Shown here piece after piece: positions 1 through 52,371 of a stretch of DNA of 52,371 bases. Where the stretch lies: the NCBI GenBank assembly GCA_043798795.1, contig JAZDOJ010000037.1:1-52371 (forward strand). The letters are read 5' to 3'. Source of the DNA: Candidatus Omnitrophota bacterium. GTDB lineage: Bacteria; Omnitrophota; Gorgyraeia; Gygaellales; Profunditerraquicolaceae. The notes under the pieces were generated by a model. That model did not search any database. It was not told the DNA's origin and saw nothing but the letters and a program-made list of their open reading frames with translations. Made by a program: the position numbers and the translations under genes. The first letter of the stretch is position 1. Every line of letters starts with the position of its first letter.

Positions 1-141
1 ATCAAGTAGAAGCGCAAATCTGTGGGTATACGGCATTATAAGCCAAGTTATGCAAGAACAACAACCAGAGGTTATGCCAAGACATGTAACAATTTTCAGA
101 GAACCCCAATACGAAAGCGTACAATTATCTTGACAACACTT
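1..141. repeat. Left arm of a perfect 141-bp terminal inverted repeat (reverse complement of 52231..52371)
   Basis: Base-by-base comparison: positions 1..141 pair exactly with 52371..52231, and identity breaks at 142/52230. The arm sits where the 5' third of clpB should be. Confidence 0.95.
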
Positions 142-9534: not shown

Positions 9535-10638
9535 ATGGCGCAAGTCAGCCTTAATAATGTTTCAAAGATTTTTGCGGGAAATGTCAAAGCGGTTGATTGT
9601 GTTAATTTAGGTATTGAGAATAAAGAATTCATGGTACTGGTTGGGCCTTCGGGTTGCGGAAAATCTACAACCTTAAGGATGATCGCAGGCCTGGAAGATA
9701 TGAGCGAAGGAAACATCTACATCGGAGACCAGCTTGTCAATGATGTGCCGGCCAAGGATAGAAACATCGCCATGGTGTTCCAGAATTACGCCCTGTACCC
9801 TCATATGACGGTCTTTGAAAATATGGCGTTTGGCCTGAGGCTGCGGCACATGCCTAAGAATGAGATCAGCCAGCGCGTTAATGAAGCCGCTGAGATATTG
9901 GGGATCAAGCGTCTTTTGAACCGTAAGCCCCGCGAGCTCTCCGGTGGCGAACGGCAGCGGGTGGCCGTCGGCAGGGCGATCGTGAGAAAACCGTTGGTTT
10001 TTTTGTTCGACGAACCCTTGAGCAACCTGGATGCGAAGATGCGCGTCCAGATGCGCACCGAAATCCATAAATTGCACATCAGGCTTCAGACGACCATTAT
10101 CTATGTGACGCACGACCAGGTCGAGGCCATGACCATGGGAGATCGGATCGCCGTTATGAAGGACGGGGTTCTGCAGCAGGTGGCCGATCCTATTACCGTT
10201 TACGACCAGCCAAAGAATAAATTCGTTGCCGGCTTTATTGGTTCTCCTCCCATGAATTTCATGAAGGGAAGTCTGCAGAAGAAGAATGGCAAGATCTTTT
10301 TTAGCGAAGGCAAGATCAGGGTCAGGCTTGTCGAGGATATGGTTCCTAAAATACTTTCCTATATCGGCAAAGAAGTCATTTTTGGCATCCGTTCCGAGGA
10401 TATCTATGATAAGTTGTTTGTCTCCGAGGCACCACCGGACAATATCGTCCGGGTGAGCTGTGAAGTGTTCGAACCGATGGGTTCAGAGGTTTATCTGTAT
10501 CTGAATACCGGCAGGCATACGTTCATTGCGCGGGTAGGTGCACACGACCGTCCCAAGATCAACCAGGATATGGATGTGGTCTTCGACATGAGCAAAGTGC
10601 ACTTTTTCAATAAAGATACGGAAGAAACTATCGTCTAA
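9535..10638 (+). CDS. ABC transporter ATP-binding protein, MalK/UgpC/MsmX type (orphan, no adjacent permease)
   Basis: Walker A GPSGCGKST, signature LSGGERQR, Walker B FLFDEPLS and a C-terminal TOBE-like domain. Confidence 0.9.
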   Translation: MAQVSLNNVSKIFAGNVKAVDCVNLGIENKEFMVLVGPSGCGKSTTLRMIAGLEDMSEGNIYIGDQLVNDVPAKDRNIAMVFQNYALYPHMTVFENMAFGLRLRHMPKNEISQRVNEAAEILGIKRLLNRKPRELSGGERQRVAVGRAIVRKPLVFLFDEPLSNLDAKMRVQMRTEIHKLHIRLQTTIIYVTHDQVEAMTMGDRIAVMKDGVLQQVADPITVYDQPKNKFVAGFIGSPPMNFMKGSLQKKNGKIFFSEGKIRVRLVEDMVPKILSYIGKEVIFGIRSEDIYDKLFVSEAPPDNIVRVSCEVFEPMGSEVYLYLNTGRHTFIARVGAHDRPKINQDMDVVFDMSKVHFFNKDTEETIV

Positions 10639-10667
10639 ACCATTCCCGCCTTAATTTTTGGGGTAAA

Positions 10668-11846
10668 GTGCGCATGCTCTTCCCTATTCTTCTCGTCAAT
10701 ATCCTCGCCTTTTATTTCCTGTTTCAGCATTACTCAAAAAGAAAATACCGTCTGGAATATAAAATTCAGGATCTGCAGGAACAGCTGAACGTCCTCAAGG
10801 ATGAGTTAGGCAGGGAACTCCAAAATAATGCAGGTCAGAAGGTCCGGATCAAACGGTACAGTAATCTTAAGGACTATATTGAAGAACTCAACCGTAGCCT
10901 GGCCCTGGATTCTGTGGCCGAGAGCCTCACTGCCATTGCCTTTTCCCATATAGCCCGTCATCAGGGCGTCTGCATCCTTTATTTTATAGATAAGCAGTTG
11001 AACCTGCAGATTTTTAAAACAAAAAAACAAGACGATGGTCTCATCATCCAGGCCAAGAAAGGGGATGTCTTCGATTACTGGGTCCTCAGGCACCTGGGCC
11101 CCTTACTCATTGAGGATGTCCGGCAGGATTTCCGTTTTGATCTGGGAAAATTAGACAACAGGGAAAACAGGCTGATCTTGTCCCTGATCAGTTCCCCCCT
11201 CATGAGCGAACACAGAGTCTTAGGGACCCTCAGGCTGGATCATGCACAGGCTCATTTTTTTACACAGGACGATCTGCGTTTTCTTGTTGCCGTTTCCGAT
11301 TTGGGGGCTGTGGCCATAGAAAACAGTGAGCTTTATCAAAAAACGCGCGATTTAGCCATCCACGATACGCTCACCATGCTTTTTACAAAAGGGTTTTTTA
11401 TGGAAAGGTTGACGGAAGAATGCCTTCGGGCCTTGAGTCAGCGAACCGGGCTATATCTATTAATGCTCGATATCGATTTTTTTAAAAATTACAATGACCG
11501 GTTTGGGCATACGGCAGGAGATATCGTATTAAAAAGGTTGAGCCAAATCATGACGGGCGCCCTGAAAGACACCCTTGCCACGGTGAGTCGTTTTGGCGGA
11601 GAGGAATTCAGCGTGTTGCTTCCCTGTGTCAATAAGAAAGCAGCTCAAAGTTACGCCGAAGAGATCCGCCGAAAGATTGAGGAAGAGGAAATTATTCTGC
11701 GAAGGCAGAAGACCCACGTTACGGTTTCGATCGGCATCGCCGGGTTTTGCGCAGATGCCCCTACGGAAGATGAGTTGATCCGCCGGGCCGATAAAGCCTT
11801 GTATCAAGCCAAGAAAAAGGGGAGAAATCAGATATGCTGTATCTAG
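10668..11846 (+). CDS. Membrane-anchored GAF-GGDEF diguanylate cyclase
   Basis: N-terminal TM helix, a GAF-like middle region and a GGDEF domain with an intact GGEEF active site (SRFGGEEFSVLLP). No RxxD I-site five residues upstream. Confidence 0.85.
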   Translation: MRMLFPILLVNILAFYFLFQHYSKRKYRLEYKIQDLQEQLNVLKDELGRELQNNAGQKVRIKRYSNLKDYIEELNRSLALDSVAESLTAIAFSHIARHQGVCILYFIDKQLNLQIFKTKKQDDGLIIQAKKGDVFDYWVLRHLGPLLIEDVRQDFRFDLGKLDNRENRLILSLISSPLMSEHRVLGTLRLDHAQAHFFTQDDLRFLVAVSDLGAVAIENSELYQKTRDLAIHDTLTMLFTKGFFMERLTEECLRALSQRTGLYLLMLDIDFFKNYNDRFGHTAGDIVLKRLSQIMTGALKDTLATVSRFGGEEFSVLLPCVNKKAAQSYAEEIRRKIEEEEIILRRQKTHVTVSIGIAGFCADAPTEDELIRRADKALYQAKKKGRNQICCI

Positions 11847-30382: not shown

Positions 30383-30454
30383 GGGCCCATAGCTCAGTGG
30401 TAGAGCAGGTGACTCATAATCACTTGGTCGGAGGTCCGAGTCCTTCTGGGCCCA
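30383..30454 (+). tRNA. tRNA with CAT anticodon (elongator Met or Ile2)
   Basis: Cloverleaf: acceptor GGGCCCA/TGGGCCC, D arm GCTC..GAGC and anticodon loop CTCATAA. The T loop reads TCCGAGT (C at position 55). No encoded CCA. It lacks initiator features. Confidence 0.85.
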
Positions 30455-30463
30455 GCGGATTCA

Positions 30464-30537
30464 GGGCGCATAGCTCAGTTGGTTAGAGCGCTACACTCAC
30501 ATTGTAGAGGTCGAAGGTTCAAGTCCTTCTGCGCCCA
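30464..30537 (+). tRNA. tRNA-Val (CAC)
   Basis: Acceptor GGGCGCA/TGCGCCC, anticodon stem CTACA/TGTAG with loop CTCACAT, and T arm GAAGG-TTCAAGT-CCTTC. Confidence 0.92.
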
Positions 30538-31878: not shown

Positions 31879-32296
31879 GGGGCAGGTAGGATGTGGTCGC
31901 CCTGAATGGTTCTATCAGGGAGGAAAGTCCGGGCTCCGGAGGACAGCGTAGTGGGTAATGCCCACCGTCGTCAAGAATTTTGGCGATAGGATTCCCCCCC
32001 CGGCTAGATAGTAGCAGGGGGACCCGCCGGTGACATTTTTTGAGTCGGCGGGAGAGGACAGAGACGAGTCCCTGCCGTTTTTAGGCGGGGAGTGAGACGA
32101 CCAATCTCTACGTGGAGCAAGGTGGAATAGGAGACAAGCCCGCCATCGGTGGGCAGGTGCTGGTCCGGCACCTCAAAGAGTCTCGGGTAAACTGCTTGAG
32201 GGCGGATGGTAACATCCGTCTCGAGAGAAATGGCCACTCCAGGTAAGCGAAAAAAATCGCAACCGATACAGAACCCGGCTTATTCTATCTGCCCCT
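31879..32296 (+). ncRNA. rnpB: RNase P RNA, bacterial type A
   Basis: Conserved GAGGAAAGTCCGGGCTCC near the 5' end and ACAGAACCCGGCTTA near the 3' end. Terminal P1 pairing GGGGCAG/CTGCCCC. Confidence 0.92.
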
Positions 32297-32339
32297 TTTA
32301 AAATTGAAATTTAGAATGTCATAACAGGAGGTCAACGAA

Positions 32340-43989: not shown

Positions 43990-44018
43990 TTGACAGCATG
44001 AAAAAGGCAAGTTATGAT
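43990..44018 (+). promoter_or_regulatory. Second sigma70-type promoter (TTGACA-17-TATGAT) proximal to the fibre locus
   Basis: Hexamers at 43990..43995 and 44013..44018. Another TTGACA lies 14 nt upstream. Confidence 0.5.
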
Positions 44019-44043
44019 AATACATTTGAGGGTGATAGGTAAC

Positions 44044-45423
44044 ATGAAAAGGTTAACGTTTTTGACATTTATTTTGACGTTAGCCCTCTGGTTCTTCCTT
44101 CCTGTTTCCAGTTGGGCCGCCTTTCGTATCTCTGTCGTTCCCTATGAGGGAGGCAATGACCTGAGATTCGAACGGGCCAGGGGTACCTTGCCTTACACGA
44201 CAAAAGAAGCAATCGTCACTGTCACTTCTGATATAGCGAAGCAATATCAAGTCATCCAAAGTCTGCTGGAGCCTTTAACAAGTGTCCAGGGGCAGACATT
44301 ATCAAGAGAGAATTTCACTGTTTATGCTGTTCCAGGAAGCAATGCCGCAGGAACCCTGACCGCGCAGCAGGAAATGAGCGTTTCGCCCGGCAGGACGATT
44401 CTCTATGTTTCCAATAGTCAGGGCATCTCCGATACCTTTAAATTGGTTTATATCCTCAAGCCTCCTTTTAATGTCCCTTCCGGATCCTACCGTGGCAGAA
44501 TATCTTTTACTCTGGAAGCCATCAATGCCGCTGAGCCTCCGGTGAACGTGATATTGAATATCTCGGCTGAGATTCAGGCTGAGTCCTCTTTCGAAATAAA
44601 GACTTTGACGGGAGCAAGTTCTATAAGGCTGGACGCTTCCAGACCGGACGGACAGGCCTGCGATGTGTTGTTTGGCATCAAAGGAGGAAGGGGGAGCCAG
44701 TTTAGAATTCTCCAGTCTTTGTCGGGTTTCATAGAATCCATGGAAGGAAACAGGCTTTCCCCGGATGCTATCTATTTTAGGGTCAGCCAGGCAGGAAAAG
44801 GGATGGGGCCTAACCAGAATACACGGCTTTCTGAGACTCAGGAGGCTGTCTATTTATCAGGACCGACGGGCGCAGAGGATCAATTTCTCATCACCTATAG
44901 TCTCGCCCCTACAGGCAACCAGAAAGCAGGACGCTACAGAGGGCAGATCCGCTACATGCTCGAAGGAATCGGTCAGCAAGAACTTATCGGCAAAATGGAT
45001 CTGGAAGTGGATGTGGCCAGAATTTTTGATTTGAAGATCACTCCGGAGTTGGGAGGAACCATCGAATTCCGTGATTTGAAACCGCAAGCCGCGCCCAAGC
45101 AATCCGAGGTTATCTTTGAGATTGCCAGCAACATCGGCAGGCCTTATCAGATCACCCAGTTTTTAACCACCGGACTCGTCAATAAGGAAGGTAATGTCAT
45201 CCCGAAGCAATTCTTTACATTAAGAGAAGAGAGCCTCGGAACGAGGGGAAGGCTCATCCTTAGCTCTCCCGCAGAAGTCAATATCGGAGAGACGATTTTA
45301 TTTGTTTCAGACCCCGCGGGCTCATCGGATAAGTTCAAAGTCATTTACGAATTAAAACCGTCTTTTGATATTATGGCAGGGGATTATACAACGCGTATCA
45401 CGTATTCGATTTCCGAGATTTAA
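44044..45423 (+). CDS. Exported protein made of three tandem pilin-like beta-sandwich repeats
   Basis: Signal peptide MKRLTFLTFILTLALWFFLPVSSWA. Three repeats of about 145 aa each end in a related motif: KLVYILKPPFNVPSGSYRGRISFTLEAI, LITYSLAPTGNQKAGRYRGQIRYMLEGI and KVIYELKPSFDIMAGDYTTRITYSISEI. Confidence 0.7.
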   Translation: MKRLTFLTFILTLALWFFLPVSSWAAFRISVVPYEGGNDLRFERARGTLPYTTKEAIVTVTSDIAKQYQVIQSLLEPLTSVQGQTLSRENFTVYAVPGSNAAGTLTAQQEMSVSPGRTILYVSNSQGISDTFKLVYILKPPFNVPSGSYRGRISFTLEAINAAEPPVNVILNISAEIQAESSFEIKTLTGASSIRLDASRPDGQACDVLFGIKGGRGSQFRILQSLSGFIESMEGNRLSPDAIYFRVSQAGKGMGPNQNTRLSETQEAVYLSGPTGAEDQFLITYSLAPTGNQKAGRYRGQIRYMLEGIGQQELIGKMDLEVDVARIFDLKITPELGGTIEFRDLKPQAAPKQSEVIFEIASNIGRPYQITQFLTTGLVNKEGNVIPKQFFTLREESLGTRGRLILSSPAEVNIGETILFVSDPAGSSDKFKVIYELKPSFDIMAGDYTTRITYSISEI

Positions 45424-45463
45424 GGAAAGCAAAATTGAATCAAGAGGAGGGGGGGTGAAAAAG

Positions 45464-46039
45464 ATGAAGAAAGGTTTAACGGCAATAATCAGTTTAACGC
45501 TACTTTTGGGTGTTGCCTCGATAGGTCTAGCTGCTGATACCAAGAGTGTCGGAGTGCAAGCTGTCGTGCCTCAACAGAATGGCCTGACCGTGACTGTTTC
45601 AAAGGTCGTGGGGACCACTTTTACAACGGCAACGAGCATCAACTTCGGCACGCTCGTGTATGATACGGTGAACAAGATTTTTACGACCTCCGACGGTTCC
45701 TACTATGCGGTGGATGTAGGATGCAACTCCAATTCGGCGGATTGGACGGTCACGCACACAATAACATCTTTGCTTAACGGAACGTCCAACTTGGATGGCC
45801 ATGTGAACGTCACCTTTATGAAGCAGACGTCCAGCACAGCAGGTACGCAAATCAGCAAATACAGTTATGCCGCAAGCAACAACAAGCCTTTTACAAAAGC
45901 TCAACTATCAGGTGGATGGTTGAGAGTTTACTATGGCTTGGCCACAGGTGTTGGTGATGCAACAGGCGTAACTCCAGTTCCGTCTGACAAGACGTACGGT
46001 ACCTACTCGGGCACAGTCACGTTTACTCTGACTCCGTAA
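45464..46039 (+). CDS. Exported pilin-like subunit (SCPU/Csu-like C-terminal motif)
   Basis: Signal peptide ..GVASIGLAA, then an alternating Nte-like segment SVGVQAVV, INFGTLV, GWLRVYYGL and the C-terminal YGTYSGTVTFTLTP. Confidence 0.65.
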   Translation: MKKGLTAIISLTLLLGVASIGLAADTKSVGVQAVVPQQNGLTVTVSKVVGTTFTTATSINFGTLVYDTVNKIFTTSDGSYYAVDVGCNSNSADWTVTHTITSLLNGTSNLDGHVNVTFMKQTSSTAGTQISKYSYAASNNKPFTKAQLSGGWLRVYYGLATGVGDATGVTPVPSDKTYGTYSGTVTFTLTP

Positions 46040-46189
46040 GGGAGATAGAGGATAAGATCAGAAAATAATCAGGTTGAGGCTGCATGTTTTTTGAATTTTG
46101 CAGCCTGGGCTTGTTGAATTTCTAGAAATTTCCTTACATAGAGGAAGGTAGTCCTCTGTTCACATGAGAAAAAACGAAAGGAGTGTTGC

Positions 46190-46864
46190 ATGAGAAGAAA
46201 GGGTTTTCAAATCTTGGCCGTTGTATGTGTGTCCTTGTTGGTGTGCGGAGTCAGTTTTGCTGCCTCCACCAGCACGTTATCAGCCTCAGCCACGGTAACC
46301 GGCCCTACGGGTATCAGCCCGGTAACTTTGCGAGTTTTGGGGACGGGGGCTAATCCTTCGGATTGGGCGGATACGACGAATTATACATCCTTGGATTTCG
46401 ATCCCTTAACGCTTTTAACCGGCACAGCGAATGGGATTCCGTTTTCGGTCTTTTTGCCTAACCACTTTTACTCCATTGATATGGCTTATACCTACGGTGG
46501 GGGTGCAGCGATAACCCAGATGTCCTTCTTGTTCACCGGGACAGAGCCAGCAGGCCAACCTATTGGCAGCGGCCTGGGCGTTAAAGGCACAGCGACTCTT
46601 GTGAAGAAAAGAATAGTCAATGGCGTTGAGGCTCCGGAAACGGGAGGGGATAGAATAGCCAAAGTGCTCCTCAGAGATGTCAGTACGGTTAATGTCCTGC
46701 TCACAGACATCGCTCAGGGCTGGTTAAGAATGTATGTCGGGCTCGTCACAAAAGATCCGGCTCTTCCTGCGGGCGACATTGAATTGGGTTCCGAGGCTCA
46801 GGTTTTTTCTCCGGGAGATGTGCCAGGTTCTTACACAGGGTCATTGACAATATCTTCTCTATAA
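46190..46864 (+). CDS. Exported pilin-like subunit, paralogue of 45464..46039
   Basis: Signal peptide ..CGVSFAA, TLSASATVT, GWLRMYVGL and the C-terminal PGSYTGSLTISSL. Confidence 0.65.
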   Translation: MRRKGFQILAVVCVSLLVCGVSFAASTSTLSASATVTGPTGISPVTLRVLGTGANPSDWADTTNYTSLDFDPLTLLTGTANGIPFSVFLPNHFYSIDMAYTYGGGAAITQMSFLFTGTEPAGQPIGSGLGVKGTATLVKKRIVNGVEAPETGGDRIAKVLLRDVSTVNVLLTDIAQGWLRMYVGLVTKDPALPAGDIELGSEAQVFSPGDVPGSYTGSLTISSL

Positions 46865-46911
46865 GGTAGGAACTTTAAAGAGTCAGGCTTTTTCAAGAGA
46901 GTGAGAAAAAG

Positions 46912-47715
46912 ATGAAAAAAAGTACATTTTTTCTAAGTGGGGTTCTTTTTTTGTTTTTCAGTTCTACGGCATTTGCGCAGCTTGTCTTGGATAAAAGGGA
47001 AATCAAAATTGATGCGAAGCCGGGAGAGACGGTGTCTGGTTCTGTCACGGTTTCCAACCTGTACGGTCAAGCCGTGACGCTCAAGGCGTATCTTGAAGAT
47101 TTTATTTACGAGGCGCCTTTCCGGGGGTTTAAGACCGTACTTCCTTTGGGTTCAACGTCTCGCTCTTTCGGGAAATGGGTCAGTATAACCACCCCTCTGT
47201 TTATCGTGCCCTCCAAATCAAAACAGGAAGTGACCTATTCCGTCAAAGTGCCCCAGAATGCCTTGGGCGGTTATTATGCGGTCCTTTTCTTTGAAAAAGG
47301 AGATGGTGCCGTATCAGGAGAAAAAGGTGTAGGGATTAAAGAAAAGGCCGGTTGCGCCTTGTTTTTGGAAACCACTAATAAAACTAAAGAAGCAAAAATT
47401 AATAAGCTAACTGTCCTTGAAGACCGCATCGAGAGTTCTCTTATGAATTCAGGGGATTGCCTGTTGATAGCTCAAGGTTCCTATTATATAATGGATGATA
47501 AAGGAATCGTGGCGGATAGGGGGCAGATGCAAAAGGTTTATCTTCCTGCCGGAGGAGAGGCTGCCTTCTCAGTGAAGATTTCTGAAAAGGTGCCTTCGGG
47601 AAAATACAACCTGGTAATTAATTTTGACACGGGGGAAGGAAAGACCTTTATCAAAGAGGCTGATTTCTCAAAAGACAAAGCAGGATCTTTAAAGATCCTC
47701 ACTCAGCGGGATTAG
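46912..47715 (+). CDS. Periplasmic two-domain Ig-like protein, candidate pilus chaperone
   Basis: Signal peptide. The N-domain pattern REIKIDAKPGETVSGSVTVSN....LKAYLEDF...GGYYAVLFFEK is paralogous to the next gene. Confidence 0.55.
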   Translation: MKKSTFFLSGVLFLFFSSTAFAQLVLDKREIKIDAKPGETVSGSVTVSNLYGQAVTLKAYLEDFIYEAPFRGFKTVLPLGSTSRSFGKWVSITTPLFIVPSKSKQEVTYSVKVPQNALGGYYAVLFFEKGDGAVSGEKGVGIKEKAGCALFLETTNKTKEAKINKLTVLEDRIESSLMNSGDCLLIAQGSYYIMDDKGIVADRGQMQKVYLPAGGEAAFSVKISEKVPSGKYNLVINFDTGEGKTFIKEADFSKDKAGSLKILTQRD

Positions 47716-47718
47716 AGA

Positions 47719-48591
47719 ATGTTGAACCGGATGAGCATCCTTTTACCACTCTTTAGCGTTATGAGTTTTTTCCTTTTTGCGCAAGGCCTGGAAGCGGCCA
47801 CGGTGCGTATCAATCCGACTAAAATACGCCTCATCATCCCGGCCGGCGGAACGAAAACCGGGACCATCGAGGTGGATAATCCTTCCGAATATTCCATCAT
47901 CGTGAAGAGCTATTTAGAGGATTGGGCTTATACACCTTTGCATGACGGCACGAAGAATTTCTCTGCGGCCGGAACGAACGCGTTATCCGCAAGCCGCTGG
48001 ATAACCACTTCGCTAAACGATTTTGTGGTCCCTGCTTTCGGGAAACAGGCCCTCCATTATACAATTCGGGTGCCTGAGAATAGCAGCGGCGGATATTACG
48101 CCGCCCTTTTTTTTGAAAGCCTTTTGTCTGAACCTGACGTTAAAGACATGACGCAGTTAGGGGTGGTGGTTCGGATTGGCGCCCTGTTTTATATTGAGGT
48201 GGAAGCAACCATTCGCAGAACTGCTGAAGTCTCGAATCTAGCTCTGGAACGGCTCTCAGGGAGTGAACCGCTGAAGATGAGCGCAGATTTCAAGAATTCG
48301 GGAAACGTCGACATCACGGCAGCAGGGACTTTCCATATCATGGACAATCAAGGCATGATTTTTGCCAGAGGAGATTTAACGGATGTTTATCTCTTTCCCG
48401 GCGAATCGGCAAAATTAACTTCCAGATGGAAAGATCCTTTATCGAAGGGTAAATATAATCTGGTCATGACACTTGATATCGGCAAAGCGCAAGAAGAGGC
48501 AAAGCTTGGAAGGGGCCCTGTTATTATCAAAGAAGCAGAGTTAGAAATTGGGGGGAGGGGCGAGGTTCTAAGGGTCGGCACATTAAGATAG
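47719..48591 (+). CDS. Periplasmic two-domain Ig-like protein, candidate pilus chaperone (PapD/FimC-like N-terminal pattern)
   Basis: TVRINPTKIRLIIPAGGTKTGTIEVDNPSEYSIIVKSYLEDW mirrors the ..TR.IYPAG.K...L.V.N......L.Q.W.. pattern of PapD-type chaperones. Also GGYYAALFFES. The second domain resembles that of the preceding gene (GKYNLV). Confidence 0.55.
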   Translation: MLNRMSILLPLFSVMSFFLFAQGLEAATVRINPTKIRLIIPAGGTKTGTIEVDNPSEYSIIVKSYLEDWAYTPLHDGTKNFSAAGTNALSASRWITTSLNDFVVPAFGKQALHYTIRVPENSSGGYYAALFFESLLSEPDVKDMTQLGVVVRIGALFYIEVEATIRRTAEVSNLALERLSGSEPLKMSADFKNSGNVDITAAGTFHIMDNQGMIFARGDLTDVYLFPGESAKLTSRWKDPLSKGKYNLVMTLDIGKAQEEAKLGRGPVIIKEAELEIGGRGEVLRVGTLR

Positions 48592-48593
48592 CA

Positions 48594-51407
48594 ATGGTGA
48601 CAATTTCGAGGTTAATAACCAAAACAAAAGGATTAAAAATCCTTTTTTTTATAATCTGTGCCTGGGCGGTCCTGTCGGCCTCATGGGTGCCGTGCGCGTT
48701 CGCCTATTCTCAAATTGCCGAGTATCTGTGCGAAATTGGGATAAAATTCTTCCAGCAAGGCCGCTATGAAGAGGCTTTGCATGAGTTTAAGAAGGCCCTG
48801 TTAGCCAAGCCTGATTATGAGGCAGCCCAAAAATACATTGAGATGACAGAGCGTATGATTCCTGGTGCGGCTGTTATGCCGACTCAAAAAATTCCTTCCG
48901 CAACCCCTGCCGAATACATGGAACTGCTTGAGATTCAAAAGGAAATGATGCGAGAGAAACAGAGGCCGGTCGTGCCTGCCATGCCGGCCGCTCAGAGGCC
49001 CGCAAAAGCTGTCTCCCTACCCGGGGAAATCAAAAAAAGGATTTATGCACCCAGGGAATTAACTTTGGATGAATCTTTTAGCCGCATAAGGCAACCCATT
49101 GAGATTGAGCAGGGAGAAACCATTGCGATCAAAGGGAGAGGTATCCAGAGATTCCTTGTCACCGAGCCACTTGTTTTAAAAGTCGAAAGAAAAGGACTTG
49201 ATGAAATTCTCGTTACGGGAGAAAGGATTGGCTATACCTTTCTTCATATCTGGGACCAAAACGGCCGATGGACTTTAGAGTTTCTTACGATTCCTCCCAG
49301 GCCCCAAGGCCCAACGCTTGAGGAAGAGCTGCGTCAGGCTGAAGAAAAAGCGAAAAACTTTAAATTCCGTTATTATCTGGATTGGTCTTCTTTTGAAACA
49401 GGTCGAAAATGGGATTCCTTAAAGCGCAGCAGTTATTCCTGGAGACATTCGTTGACTTTTTTTGGAGAAACGCCCTATGGGATGTTTGATTCAACGGTTT
49501 CAGGGAACGTCTGGCAAGACACTTCGGAAGTCTCCTATATGTCCGTTGGATTGACGCAAGGCAGGCTCGGCACTTTTAAGGATTTCAATGTACGGTTGCT
49601 GGACTTTACACCGGCTCTTTCGAACCTGATTTTATGGGGAGGGAATTTGCGCGGTGCCATGTTAAATTCCCCTGCTTTTGATAACATGATAGATTATACC
49701 GTTTTTTGGGGCACGGAAAGAGGCGGTCTTTACGGAGATTTCACGCCGGGATTTACCACAGAGAGGGAATCTTATTTGACCGGTATCGATGTGAATATCA
49801 AGCCGAAGGAAAAACAGAAATATGGTTTTTCTATTGTTCGCGGCGGGGGCAGCGACCGGCTCCCTGAGCTTAATGAATACGGTTACGACGCTGATTTTAG
49901 TCTTGACTTTGCCAAGGGGAGCCTGAGTGGTGATGTAGGTTTTGATTCAAAAAAATTTGCCTATCTGCTCAATGCCTCTACCAGCATCCCCGACCTCATC
50001 GTCAACTCGGAATTTCGCAATATCGATAAAGAATTCCTGACCATGACGGGCCTGGGGTCCCGGGCTGGTGAATTAGGCCTCTTGACAAATATTTTTTACA
50101 CGCCGCGGGAATATCTTACGGTTAATGCCAGAACAGACTTTTATCAAGACAGGCTTTTCCCCCGTCCTACAGATGAGGATGCCTGGAACCAGGATATGAA
50201 TTTGGGCGTAAGCCTCCAGGCCGACCCGGCGACCGTCTGGAGAGTGGATTATGCCTTGCAAAATGACCTGGGAAAGGTTTCCCCTCTCCGTAATTATAAC
50301 GCCGGGCTCTCTTTAAACAGGTATTTCGATTGGATAAGAAGGATCAATACGTTCATCATGTACCGTTACTATCATACAAATAATTTCCGATCTCCTACCC
50401 TGGACTACATCAATAACCGTATCATGATGGGAATAAGTTTCAATATCATAAAAGACCTCAATTATTTTGTCAACCAGGAATTCGGGTGGATTGAGGCCTT
50501 GAAGGCGGATGAGAAATCACATCCCCGCGCCCTCCAGACGGGCCTGGATTGGGGCAGGCAGATCTTTAAATCACCCTTCTTTGTCAATTTACGCTTTTTC
50601 TATCGGGACGAGGAAAATACCTTATCGCCTTTCAGCTTCCTTTCGGGAGAGGATTATGTGGAAAGCTACGGCGAGATCTCTTACAAACCCACGCCGGACC
50701 TGGAGGCCTTTTTCAATACCCGCGTGCGCAATGTCTGGGCTGAAAATCCCACGACGCAGAAGCGCCTCGATGTGAATTTTTACTCAGGATTGCGCTATCT
50801 TTGGGATACAGGCTTGCGCTGGGAATCCGTGGGGGCCATTGATGGCTACGTATTCAAAGACTATAATTCCGATGGGCTCAGGCAAAGGGATGAACCGCCG
50901 GTGGAGGGTGTTAAGATTTGGATGGGCAAAGATAAATTTGAAGTGACAGACCTGTTTGGTTATTACCGGTTCAGAAAAATTAAGGCGGCGAAGGCCTTTG
51001 TCAATATTGATACCACTACGATTCCGCCTGGTTTCCTCTTGACCGTCCCGTCTACCCAGGAAGCCCCTATCCTGCAGGCCGCAAGCACCCAGATTAACTT
51101 CGGGATTCTCAGCAAGACGGAGATTGTAGGGATCGTCTTTGATGATGTGGATGGGAAAAAAGAGCTGGGTCCTGGTTCTGTTGGCTTAAAAGGGGTCGAG
51201 GTCTACCTGGAAGACGGAAGCAGGGCTAAGACGGATAATTTCGGAAGATACGCGTTTAAAAAGGCGAACCTGGGTAAACACAGGCTCACCCTGGATTTAA
51301 AGACAGTGCCTGCCCAATATATACCTACCGTGCCTATCTTTGTCGATTTTGAATTATCGGAAGGCGACAGCTTCAGTTACAATATTCCAATGAAGAAAAC
51401 GGAGTAG
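48594..51407 (+). CDS. 937-aa outer-membrane protein: signal peptide, TPR, CpaC/RcpA-N-like domain, large beta-barrel and two SdrD-B/Cna-B-like domains
   Basis: TPR-like GRYEEALHEFKKALLAKPDYEAA. Pilus-N-like IEIEQGETIAIKGRGIQRFLVTEPLVLKV...ILVTGERIGYTFLHIWDQNGR. About 520 aa with amphipathic beta-strand periodicity rich in Y/F/W/N/G. C-terminal GYVFKDYNSDGLRQRDEPPVEGVKI...TDLFGYYRF and GIVFDDVDGKKELG..GLKGVEVYLEDGSRAKTDNFGRYAF. Confidence 0.6.
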   Translation: MVTISRLITKTKGLKILFFIICAWAVLSASWVPCAFAYSQIAEYLCEIGIKFFQQGRYEEALHEFKKALLAKPDYEAAQKYIEMTERMIPGAAVMPTQKIPSATPAEYMELLEIQKEMMREKQRPVVPAMPAAQRPAKAVSLPGEIKKRIYAPRELTLDESFSRIRQPIEIEQGETIAIKGRGIQRFLVTEPLVLKVERKGLDEILVTGERIGYTFLHIWDQNGRWTLEFLTIPPRPQGPTLEEELRQAEEKAKNFKFRYYLDWSSFETGRKWDSLKRSSYSWRHSLTFFGETPYGMFDSTVSGNVWQDTSEVSYMSVGLTQGRLGTFKDFNVRLLDFTPALSNLILWGGNLRGAMLNSPAFDNMIDYTVFWGTERGGLYGDFTPGFTTERESYLTGIDVNIKPKEKQKYGFSIVRGGGSDRLPELNEYGYDADFSLDFAKGSLSGDVGFDSKKFAYLLNASTSIPDLIVNSEFRNIDKEFLTMTGLGSRAGELGLLTNIFYTPREYLTVNARTDFYQDRLFPRPTDEDAWNQDMNLGVSLQADPATVWRVDYALQNDLGKVSPLRNYNAGLSLNRYFDWIRRINTFIMYRYYHTNNFRSPTLDYINNRIMMGISFNIIKDLNYFVNQEFGWIEALKADEKSHPRALQTGLDWGRQIFKSPFFVNLRFFYRDEENTLSPFSFLSGEDYVESYGEISYKPTPDLEAFFNTRVRNVWAENPTTQKRLDVNFYSGLRYLWDTGLRWESVGAIDGYVFKDYNSDGLRQRDEPPVEGVKIWMGKDKFEVTDLFGYYRFRKIKAAKAFVNIDTTTIPPGFLLTVPSTQEAPILQAASTQINFGILSKTEIVGIVFDDVDGKKELGPGSVGLKGVEVYLEDGSRAKTDNFGRYAFKKANLGKHRLTLDLKTVPAQYIPTVPIFVDFELSEGDSFSYNIPMKKTE

Positions 51408-51472: not shown

Positions 51473-51724
51473 TTAGCGCGCGTAGTACGTCTTAACGAGC
51501 ATCTGCGGGGTTGAGACGTTCACGCTGGCTGCTTGCGCGTCCTGCTGGATCAGCTTCTCTGCCTCGGCCGTGACCTGGACCTGTTCCTGTTCCAAGAGAG
51601 GCGTATTCACGCCCGGGATAGCTGGGATCGTGCATGAAACAGGTAGCGATGATGTGTCACCCGCATGAGCCAGGGTCACTGTACAACAGAACGCTAAGAT
51701 CAAAGCCATAAACATTTTTTTCAT
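51473..51724 (-). CDS. Small secreted protein (83 aa), unknown function
   Basis: Signal peptide MKKMFMALILAFCCTVTLAHA. SD GAGGTG. Second gene of the riboswitch-controlled unit. Confidence 0.55.
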   Translation of the reverse strand: MKKMFMALILAFCCTVTLAHAGDTSSLPVSCTIPAIPGVNTPLLEQEQVQVTAEAEKLIQQDAQAASVNVSTPQMLVKTYYAR

Positions 51725-51735
51725 CAAACACCTCG

Positions 51736-52011
51736 CTAACCTTCCGTGGCTGGTGTAGTGGGACTGACCCCTTTTTGCCCCATAATTTCCCTGATTCTAT
51801 TTTCCAAATCCTCTTCGGACTTAATATTCTTTCCGTTAATGTTTAACGCTTTCATAAAATCAACGAACCAGGCAATGATTTTAGCGCGGGATAATTTAGA
51901 GCCGGTTGAAAACAAGGCATCCTTGCCCAGCTTATCCAAAAAATCAATTTCTGCGCGATTCAAGAACGTAACTACCCGTTGATTCTTTTTCAGATGTTCC
52001 GAAAGGTTCAT
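51736..52011 (-). CDS. Small protein (91 aa) with ribbon-helix-helix-like N-terminus
   Basis: Start at the internal ATG (MNLSEHLKKNQRVVTFLNRAEIDFLDKL..) preceded by GGGGGTG. The longer ORF-track start would run through the terminator hairpin and the riboswitch. Confidence 0.55.
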   Translation of the reverse strand: MNLSEHLKKNQRVVTFLNRAEIDFLDKLGKDALFSTGSKLSRAKIIAWFVDFMKALNINGKNIKSEEDLENRIREIMGQKGVSPTTPATEG

Positions 52012-52022
52012 CCGGCACCCCC

Positions 52023-52060
52023 AAAAACAAAAAACCCTAAAGGCAATCTTTAGGGTTTTT
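52023..52060 (-). terminator. Intrinsic terminator forming the riboswitch expression platform
   Basis: Minus strand: ACCCTAAAG-ATTGC-CTTTAGGGT followed by TTTTTGTTTTT. It ends about 12 nt upstream of the start codon. Confidence 0.8.
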
Positions 52061-52065
52061 TCGCT

Positions 52066-52146
52066 CTTTGGCAACCCCGCTACCCGGTATTCCGGGCCGG
52101 AGGTTTTGCGCCCCAGCATTGCTGCTAGTTTGCCTTTATCAGTGAG
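52066..52146 (-). promoter_or_regulatory. c-di-GMP-I (GEMM-I) riboswitch aptamer
   Basis: Minus-strand RNA: GGCAAA-CUAGCA-GCAA-UGCUGG-GGCGCAAAACCUCCGG-CCCGGAAUACCGGG-UAGCGGGGUUGCC. It matches the conserved core recalled from the V. cholerae Vc2 aptamer (GGCAAACC, GNRA-capped hairpin, GGGACGCAAAGCCUCCGGCC, GGUAGCGGGGUUACC). The second hairpin is unusually short. Confidence 0.8.
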
Positions 52147-52186
52147 TGTACCTAATTGTCAACACATCTGTCAAACTTCTACATAA

Positions 52187-52215
52187 AGTATAACACAAGT
52201 TTTGGCAAATGACAA
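52187..52215 (-). promoter_or_regulatory. Sigma70-type promoter driving the riboswitch (TTGTCA-17-TATACT on the minus strand)
   Basis: The reverse complement of 52210..52215 is TTGTCA and that of 52187..52192 is TATACT, with 17-nt spacing. Confidence 0.55.
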
Positions 52216-52230
52216 GGTTTGCAATTGATA

Positions 52231-52371
52231 AAGTGTTGTCAAGATAATTGTACGCTTTCGTATTGGGGTTCTCTGAAAATTGTTACATGTCTTGGCATAA
52301 CCTCTGGTTGTTGTTCTTGCATAACTTGGCTTATAATGCCGTATACCCACAGATTTGCGCTTCTACTTGAT
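52231..52371. repeat. Right arm of the 141-bp terminal inverted repeat (probably the native copy)
   Basis: Exact reverse complement of 1..141. Here the sequence continues naturally into the riboswitch promoter region, whereas the left copy interrupts clpB. Confidence 0.95.

Follow-up and report, generated by a model that had tools for sequence, protein, structure and literature searches.

Three riboswitches of class I for cyclic di-GMP (c-di-GMP), also called GEMM-I, are among the closest described systems for the element reported here. Cd1 is a class I aptamer in front of the flagellar operon of Clostridioides difficile, where it acts as a transcription-terminating OFF switch for a cell-surface function. 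Vc2 of Vibrio cholerae contacts its ligand through the nucleotides G20, A47 and C92 (PMC11218506). Bc1 of Bacillus thuringiensis has rho-independent terminators (T1 and T2) after its aptamer; its T1 is unfolded by c-di-GMP, and the riboswitch is nearly unresponsive in vivo (PMC11218506). We analysed a member of this class in a stretch of 52,371 nucleotides from Candidatus Omnitrophota bacterium (contig JAZDOJ010000037.1, hereafter the window). On its minus strand, from 52215 to 52009, a promoter, the aptamer, a terminator, a ribosome-binding site (RBS) and an ATG start codon follow one another in that order. We consider it reasonably probable that this locus is the 5' leader of a two-gene Omnitrophota operon and contains a canonical class I riboswitch, when this is taken jointly with the OFF mechanism and with the role of the regulated genes that are proposed below.

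A search of the whole window with Rfam's cmscan returned a single riboswitch match, which is full length, lies on the minus strand and belongs to clan CL00126 (64.7 bits, E value 4.3e-13). A first-pass annotation of this DNA had predicted a GEMM-I (c-di-GMP-I) aptamer with a promoter and a terminator platform on this strand, and the clan match, the covariation and the conserved leaders described below bear this out. It had also named RF01051 as the Rfam model to search with, and on this point the outcome was mixed, as the clan was matched but the top-scoring model is RF03167 (c-di-GMP-I-GGC) rather than RF01051. A second CL00126 family, very probably RF01051 (threshold 35 bits), likewise exceeds its gathering score. 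A custom covariance model built from the Rfam matches of the first homologous loci gives the window aptamer 93.3 bits, and the leader of 139 nucleotides folds better than all 200 of its shuffles (z = -4.1). The parts of the aptamer and the adjoining terminator are as follows.

52143..52066, minus strand: c-di-GMP-I aptamer within its Rfam limits (RF03167, 64.7 bits, E value 4.3e-13)
52146..52140, minus strand: 5' strand of P1, CUCACUG, which pairs with CAAAGAG at 52070..52064 and reaches 3 nucleotides beyond the Rfam match
52138..52130, minus strand: J1/2 strand, UAAAGGCAA, which contains G20; the proposed antiterminator strand
52134..52128, minus strand: GGCAAAC core, as read in the sequence
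52128..52113, minus strand: P1a hairpin, CUAGCA-GCAA-UGCUGG, with a GNRA (GYAA) tetraloop; all 6 pairs change on both sides among related aptamers, and 98.2% of the cells are paired
52104..52073, minus strand: P2 (P1b) hairpin, ACCUCCGGCCCGG-AAUA-CCGGGUAGCGGGGUU; 11 of 13 pairs change on both sides, with 83 distinct sequences
52070..52064, minus strand: 3' strand of P1, CAAAGAG, preceded by GCC
52134, 52107 and 52071, minus strand: equivalents of the pocket nucleotides G20, A47 and C92, with the canonical bases G, A and C
52061..52023, minus strand: intrinsic terminator T1 from a terminator scan, with a 14-base-pair stem (52061..52048 / 52042..52029) and a U-tract that runs to 52023

In the order along the strand, UAAAGGCAAAC comes between the 5' strand of P1 and the P1a hairpin, GGCGCAAA or GGGCGCAAAACCUCCGG between the P1a hairpin and the second hairpin, and UAGCGGGGUUGCC between the second hairpin and the terminator. 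The aptamer shares with RF01051 and Vc2 the three-helix architecture, the core AAAGGCAAAC ... GACGCAAAGC ... GCC, a GNRA tetraloop, the nucleotides G20, A47 and C92, and a site in the 5' untranslated region. It differs from them in its tetraloop, which is of the GYAA type (GCAA or GUAA) and not GAAA, in its host phylum, the Omnitrophota, and in its cargo, an uncharacterised small protein. In addition, the second hairpin lacks the 11-nucleotide receptor stretch of the RF01051 consensus, as judged from deletions in the alignment of one homologous locus (L012). The GGCAAAC core, the GCAA-capped hairpin and the short second hairpin were all listed in the first-pass annotation and are found where it had placed them. 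Its suggestion that the aptamer might be a minimal variant does not hold, as the alignment of the second hairpin with the Rfam model shows a deletion of just 3 nucleotides, and the length of this hairpin falls inside the range of 85 related aptamers.

With its canonical equivalents of G20, A47 and C92, the pocket reads as that of an ordinary c-di-GMP sensor, and by its sequence the aptamer is of the standard c-di-GMP type. The top Rfam model would point elsewhere, namely to a c-di-GMP-I-GGC variant (RF03167) of altered or unknown ligand specificity; together with the further option of a riboswitch for 3'3'-cyclic GMP-AMP (3'3'-cGAMP; GEMM-Ib), we regard this as very improbable. RF03167, which was reportedly defined by Weinberg and colleagues in 2017 in PNAS, is the best Rfam model at 64.7 bits against a gathering score of 59 bits, and it is the seed to which the window is nearest in overall sequence and hairpin lengths. 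However, the pocket consensus of the two models differs only at the equivalent of A47, where RF03167 has ...GGGACGC-G-AAgCc... and RF01051 has ...gGACGC-A-AAgCc..., and the defining G is absent from the window, which has A at 52107. In the same column, 82 of the 85 related aptamers have a base, and all 82 have A. Moreover, orthologous aptamers alternate between the RF01051 and RF03167 labels at similar scores, and thus the Rfam label tracks overall similarity and not the pocket. The window aptamer should, to judge from its sequence, not be filed under RF03167, and automatic Rfam annotation would mislabel it.

The GEMM-Ib specificity had been flagged in the first-pass annotation as something to be excluded. 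Position 20 is G (52134), as opposed to the A of cGAMP-selective variants, and the sequence therefore carries no 3'3'-cGAMP signature. An orthologous aptamer that does have A at the position of G20, the GEMM-Ib signature, is found in front of the same gene family in another locus (L038:2796-2875; AAGAGCAAAC). It is alone in this respect among aptamers upstream of the gene family; A at position 20 is otherwise seen in a weak minus-strand match (20 bits) in L066.

The comparative evidence comes from 80 loci of species-representative genomes, nearly all of them titled Omnitrophota, which together with the window make 81. Rfam finds a match to RF01051 or RF03167 some 100-250 nucleotides upstream of the orthologous gene in 18 of the first 20 homologous loci. 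The custom covariance model places an aptamer at most 400 nucleotides upstream of the gene for a protein of about 90 amino acids, and on the same strand, in 78 of the 81 loci with the window counted; one of the three loci without such a match has only 150 nucleotides of upstream sequence. Standard pairs occupy 96.3% of pair cells in the alignment of 85 hits, compared with 32-43% in slid controls. Changes on both sides are found for 18 of the 21 aptamer pairs, and none of 500 shuffles reaches the observed values. The pocket triple G/A/C is present in 79 of the 85 related aptamers. On visual inspection the P1 extension covaries: the window has CUC/GAG, whereas CCU/AGG and CUU/AAG are found at other loci. 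The duplexes of the cognate P1 flanks have a mean of -2.94 kcal/mol, which beats all 30 non-cognate permutations (mean -1.84 kcal/mol, standard deviation 0.17).

In some species there is a second aptamer between the first and the second gene of the operon, or there are weak tandem matches upstream (L066:3249-3334, L062:2278-2368 and L032:2748-2933). A second aptamer in the former position means that the second gene can have a c-di-GMP input of its own. On the plus strand of the window, positions 10614..11843 encode a 410-amino-acid open reading frame (ORF) with GAF and GGDEF domains and a GGEEF motif, which is likely a diguanylate cyclase. Given this cyclase on the same contig, the organism can presumably make the ligand of the riboswitch.

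Terminator T1 reads AAAAAACCCTAAAG-ATTGC-CTTTAGGGTTTTTT GTTTTT (52061..52023), with the loop AUUGC, the U-tract UUUUUUGUUUUU and an A-tract on its 5' side. As the first-pass annotation had claimed, a strong terminator precedes the start codon: 14 base pairs are followed by a U-tract, and its end lies 11 nucleotides 5' of the ATG at 52011. A gap of 2 nucleotides separates T1 from P1, there is no overlap with the aptamer, and the minimum free energy (MFE) structure contains T1 together with the helices of the aptamer. The stem is conserved in sequence as well as in structure, as AACCCUAAAG ... CUUUAGGGUUUU recurs in most loci. A single copy of the palindrome CCCTAARG-N3-9-CYTTAGGG is present in each of 35 loci out of 85, and in every case with both coordinates on record it lies between the aptamer and the gene start. 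We considered whether T1 is a generic repeat or a common genomic terminator, and rejected this because there is one occurrence per locus even in loci of 20 kilobases.

At least 32 of the 78 related leaders scanned have a second terminator, T2, before the RBS and 40-130 nucleotides after the aptamer (L002-L053). The consensus of T2 reads CCCYGGCA-AAAGU-UUGCCRGGG-U6, frequently with the loop AGUUUGCC, which is the complement of the aptamer segment GGCAAACU. T2 was not found in the window or in its closest relatives. These Omnitrophota leaders thus resemble Bc1 in having a rho-independent terminator after the aptamer and, in the leaders just mentioned, a pair of them, whereas the window itself has T1 only. 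They differ from Bc1 in that the loops of T1 and T2 are complementary to the 5' strand of the aptamer.

The loop of T1 and the start of its 3' arm, UUGCCUUUA (52046..52038), are perfectly complementary to J1/2, UAAAGGCAA (52138..52130). When the leader is truncated stepwise, the helix between J1/2 and the T1 loop is the MFE structure from the point at which UUGCC is complete up to the third G of GGG, 11 nucleotides later, and T1 replaces it only from there on. An exact complement of J1/2 of at least 7 nucleotides is present in the downstream leader of 40 of 69 loci, against a shuffle mean of 3.55 (maximum 10). Control searches with the reverse and the complement of J1/2 give 6 and 2 loci, and searches for complements of two further conserved segments of the aptamer give 12 and 5. 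Since a matching 7-mer has to include part of the loop, the complementarity is no by-product of the T1 stem. In one locus (L054), J1/2 has GGUAA and the T1 loop has UUACC, such that both strands have changed and the pairing is kept. A weaker case is L052, where J1/2 has GGUAA and T1 has ACCUUUA, and the complement reaches only 1 nucleotide into the loop. At least 5 pairs between J1/2 and T1 are present in the nascent MFE structure of 32 of the 57 loci that have T1.

A helix between J1/2 and T1 would exclude both ligand binding and T1, which means that c-di-GMP should favour termination. In the absence of c-di-GMP, J1/2 (UAAAGGCAA) would be free to pair with the T1 loop (UUGCC) as the latter is transcribed, and would then zip into the 3' arm (UUUA). 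The resulting helix of 9 base pairs would delay the terminator hairpin, and RNA polymerase would read through into both genes. In the presence of c-di-GMP, J1/2 would be locked in the ligand pocket, T1 would fold unhindered and transcription would stop. On predicted folding, we think it fairly probable that the riboswitch is an OFF switch of this kind, with J1/2 as the strand that forms the antiterminator. Homologues that lack T1 also point in this direction. In one of these (L023), an extended P1 helix runs straight into a U7 tract in the MFE structure, and the ligand-stabilised P1 helix may itself be the terminator stem, which would be independent support for OFF logic. The same arrangement is partial in L018, and in L027 it is seen by manual pairing only and not in the MFE structure. 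If so, the window would share with Cd1 both class I membership and OFF logic, although the cargo and the phylum differ.

The first-pass annotation had likewise proposed a c-di-GMP OFF switch. We agree that OFF is the likelier direction, but for a different reason than the one it gave, and our support comes from the J1/2:T1 helix and the homologues that lack T1. Its proposed antiterminator, a pairing of the 3' aptamer strand GGGGUU with the T1 5' arm AACCCU, fails on several counts. Most homologous leaders have CUGCGUU or CUGAGCU as the 3' strand of P2, with the T1 arm still AACCCU. Before the 3' arm of T1 is present, the probability of pairing between the T1 5' arm and the 3' strand of P2 is 0.00 in the window and averages 0.026 over 61 loci, and forcing this pairing costs 13.7 kcal/mol relative to the MFE structure. 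We also rejected a P1-extended antiterminator with ON logic, in which UUAGG of the leader pairs with CCUAA of the T1 5' arm. It has only 5 base pairs and costs 15.7 kcal/mol, and the leader variants UCAGG and UCUGG occur beside an unchanged T1 arm.

Several observations weigh against an OFF switch that works through J1/2. The J1/2:T1 antiterminator is less stable than the completed T1 by 10.8 kcal/mol, and for this reason the switch must be a kinetic trap, from which branch migration by the T1 5' arm could release it. The T1 complement of J1/2 is missing from roughly one third of the loci, and in about 20 of the 57 loci with T1 the nascent MFE structure has no pairing between J1/2 and T1; in several of the loci without this pairing, the complement of J1/2 is located in the second terminator. 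J1/2 hardly varies, and only two or three sequences show true covariation. Both c-di-GMP binding and ligand-dependent termination are proposed here from sequence and predicted folding. In Bc1, c-di-GMP unfolds T1 and there is next to no response in vivo (PMC11218506), from which it follows that the direction cannot be assumed from class membership.

Some of the same observations would suit an aptamer that binds c-di-GMP in front of a platform that barely switches. In such a case T1 would attenuate constitutively, or it would end a stand-alone small RNA that contains the aptamer, and expression would depend mainly on the promoter and the TTGACAAT motif described below. There is no thermodynamically competitive antiterminator, as the forced alternatives all cost 10.8-15.7 kcal/mol, and the 5' arm of T1 stays largely single-stranded until its 3' arm has been made. 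The poor response of Bc1 in vivo (PMC11218506) and the conserved palindromic DNA element at the predicted transcription start would also fit. Conversely, the aptamer is conserved with all of its ligand-contact positions in 78 of 81 loci across deep divergence, which argues for a selected sensing function, and a platform that barely switches leaves the conserved complementarity between the loop and J1/2 unexplained. We regard this possibility as rather improbable.

Another possibility is an ON switch, in which c-di-GMP would stabilise P1 and thereby weaken T1 or an extended T1 stem, or free the RBS, such that the operon would be on at high c-di-GMP. The MFE structure of the window pairs the 3' strand of P1 (AAGAGC) with the G/U stretch after T1, which adds 5 weak pairs to the terminator stem, and in L007, L009, L042 and L014 the extended T1 stem begins at the last nucleotide of the aptamer. 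The full-length MFE structure also pairs GGCGC of the aptamer with GUGCC next to the RBS, but this pairing is confined to close relatives of the window. Bc1 provides a precedent, given that c-di-GMP unfolds T1 there (PMC11218506), whereas OFF logic is inferred here. Against this, the T1 core of 14 base pairs does not overlap P1 and forms alongside the folded aptamer. Furthermore, the sole enriched long-range complementarity, in which J1/2 matches the loop and the 3' arm of T1, gives OFF logic, and homologues without T1 have a U-tract directly after P1. We consider an ON switch unlikely, if less so than a platform that barely switches.

The remaining elements of the leader are as follows.

52215..52187, minus strand: promoter, with the -35 box TTGTCA (52215..52210), a spacer of 17 nucleotides and the extended -10 box TGT-TATACT (52195..52187); 10 of 12 matches plus the TG extension in a promoter scan
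52163..52151, minus strand: conserved, operator-like leader element GTTGACAATTAGG, with the near-palindromic core (A)TTGACAAT
52022..52016, minus strand: putative RBS, GGGGGUG, as read in the sequence, with its 3' end 4 nucleotides from the ATG at 52011

The TTGTCA-17-TATACT promoter of the first-pass annotation is present as it had described, and the pattern is conserved. Of 73 homologous loci, 53 have TTGnnn-16..18-TAYAYT on the 5' side of the aptamer, and 47 of these have a TGn extension. The leader element, in the form TTGAYAAW, is present in 39 of the 73 loci and in most of them lies 15-23 nucleotides 5' of the aptamer. This near-palindromic element, (A)ATTGACAATTAGG, is located between the -10 box and P1, at or near the predicted transcription start, and it may be an operator. 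Perhaps the product of the first gene acts through it to regulate its own operon, but this is a guess. No enrichment of TTGACAAT was found elsewhere in the window, and thus a role as a regulon-wide operator is unsupported.

The window also has an additional, partial duplication of 13 nucleotides (GTTTGACAGATGT, 52176..52164) on the 5' side of the leader element, which was not found in its closest relatives. It contains TTGACA (52174..52169), which we considered as a -35 box together with TACACT. This candidate was rejected because its start site would fall within the aptamer. In other loci the TTGACAAT motif lies at a variable distance of 9-16 nucleotides from the aptamer and has no matching -10 box, whereas the upstream TTGnnn-17-TGnTATACT is conserved. 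An ORF on the minus strand (52239..52371) enters from past the end of the window and stops at 52239, 24 nucleotides before the -35 box. There is no terminator between this stop and the -35 box, and therefore read-through from the upstream gene could also reach the riboswitch leader. The C-terminus that this ORF encodes is unlike that of the protein of about 1075 amino acids that occupies the same place in relatives.

Two genes follow the leader.

52011..51736, minus strand: gene 1, a protein of 91 amino acids from an uncharacterised family ('domain X')
51724..51473, minus strand: gene 2, a protein of 83 amino acids, co-transcribed 9 nucleotides after gene 1

A longer ORF of 127 amino acids (52119..51736) starts inside the aptamer and was rejected as the coding region of gene 1, as the homologues begin at the Met of 52011. 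There are 382 close homologues of gene 1, and 11 of the 12 that carry an organism name are from Omnitrophota or Omnitrophica. Profile searches, including an hmmsearch of PDB, returned no Pfam family and no sequence relative in PDB. When 1.84 billion representative proteins were searched with a profile, 213 clusters matched, of which 150 were listed. Among the 33 longest of these listed clusters, 22 have a C-terminal PilZ domain and 3 have an N-terminal receiver domain (REC). The PilZ domain of two such relatives (P0157 and P0165) has intact RxxxR and [D/N]xSxxG motifs. Compared with PilZ receptors that have N-terminal partner domains, the protein from the window corresponds to just the partner domain and lacks PilZ, and its c-di-GMP input comes via RNA.

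Domain X is linked to c-di-GMP signalling by both the riboswitch in cis and the PilZ fusion, and we consider this link, as read from sequence, to be well supported. In one further locus (L086), a class I aptamer (73-149) lies upstream of a gene for an X-PilZ fusion (224-829), which suggests that c-di-GMP controls it through the RNA as well as through the protein. With the neighbouring genes described below also considered, we infer that the product of gene 1 is a small domain that serves a c-di-GMP network as an output or a regulator and is linked to an adjacent operon for exported proteins.

How domain X might act is a matter of guesswork. A first AlphaFold (AF2) model of gene 1 from a shallow alignment was unusable (predicted local distance difference test, pLDDT, 58.7). 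With a diverse alignment the pLDDT is 88.7, and the model shows, with confidence, residues 11-18 (RVVTFL) in an extended conformation, and then helices at 19-36, 42-55 and 66-79. This topology is compatible with a monomer of the ribbon-helix-helix (RHH) fold, and DNA binding would be a guess from it. No significant match to this fold emerged from two comparisons. Aligned with an approximate CopG sequence, gene 1 gives an hhalign probability of 0.14. A Foldseek search with the gene 1 model returned nothing significant: the best E value is 0.4, and the RHH protein Reg576 (6gyg) scores an E value of 4.5.

Gene 2 is found directly 3' of gene 1 in 49 other loci by tblastn, and its N-terminal hydrophobic stretch looks like a signal peptide. 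The surrounding gene order is kept at 91% and at about 69% protein identity, in distant Omnitrophota too, and comprises the gene for the protein of about 1075 amino acids upstream on the same strand, the riboswitch operon, and a convergent operon of seven genes. In the window, the latter is represented by 44014..51407 on the plus strand plus one further gene upstream. The products encoded at 44014..51407 have 469, 224, 224, 267, 290 and 937 amino acids, and most have a hydrophobic N-terminus that resembles a signal peptide. Only the member of 937 (about 930) amino acids has Pfam matches, namely TPR, T2SS-T3SS_pil_N and SdrD_B. By its sequence, this operon may encode an undescribed surface-appendage system. 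Elsewhere on the plus strand, the window contains a bacterial class A RNase P RNA (31880..32298, 144.5 bits) and two adjacent tRNA genes (30383..30454 and 30464..30537).

This RNA is an ordinary member of a known riboswitch class, and the presence of the class is unsurprising. What may be new is the geometry in which a 5' strand serves as antiterminator, the phylum-wide pairing with an uncharacterised domain, and the implied control of an exported-protein operon by c-di-GMP. Our literature searches found nothing on Omnitrophota c-di-GMP riboswitches, on the domain X family or on these three points. A more tentative proposal, which we hold to be possible but short of probable, is that a c-di-GMP module with two parts, neither of them recognised so far, extends throughout the Omnitrophota. 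In the first part, the ligand-contacting 5' strand of the aptamer, and not the 3' strand of P1, would be the antiterminator and would invade the loop and the 3' arm of one or two terminators. The second would be a new output domain of the c-di-GMP pathway, X, that occurs by itself or as a fusion with PilZ or with a receiver domain, and that is perhaps a DNA-binding regulator of the adjacent exported-protein operon.

One practical consequence concerns annotation. The c-di-GMP-I-GGC labels that pipelines assign deserve checking, as orthologues flip between labels while all have A at the position that defines the variant. For the organisms, the aptamer marks the conserved two-gene operon, and through synteny the seven-gene operon for exported proteins, as belonging to the c-di-GMP regulon in a phylum of largely uncultured, very small and possibly host-attached bacteria. 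Two independent lines connect domain X with c-di-GMP, namely the cis-acting riboswitch and the PilZ fusion, and the domain also serves as a response-regulator output. It is thus a candidate for a new effector or regulator domain, and one that can be expressed and tested.

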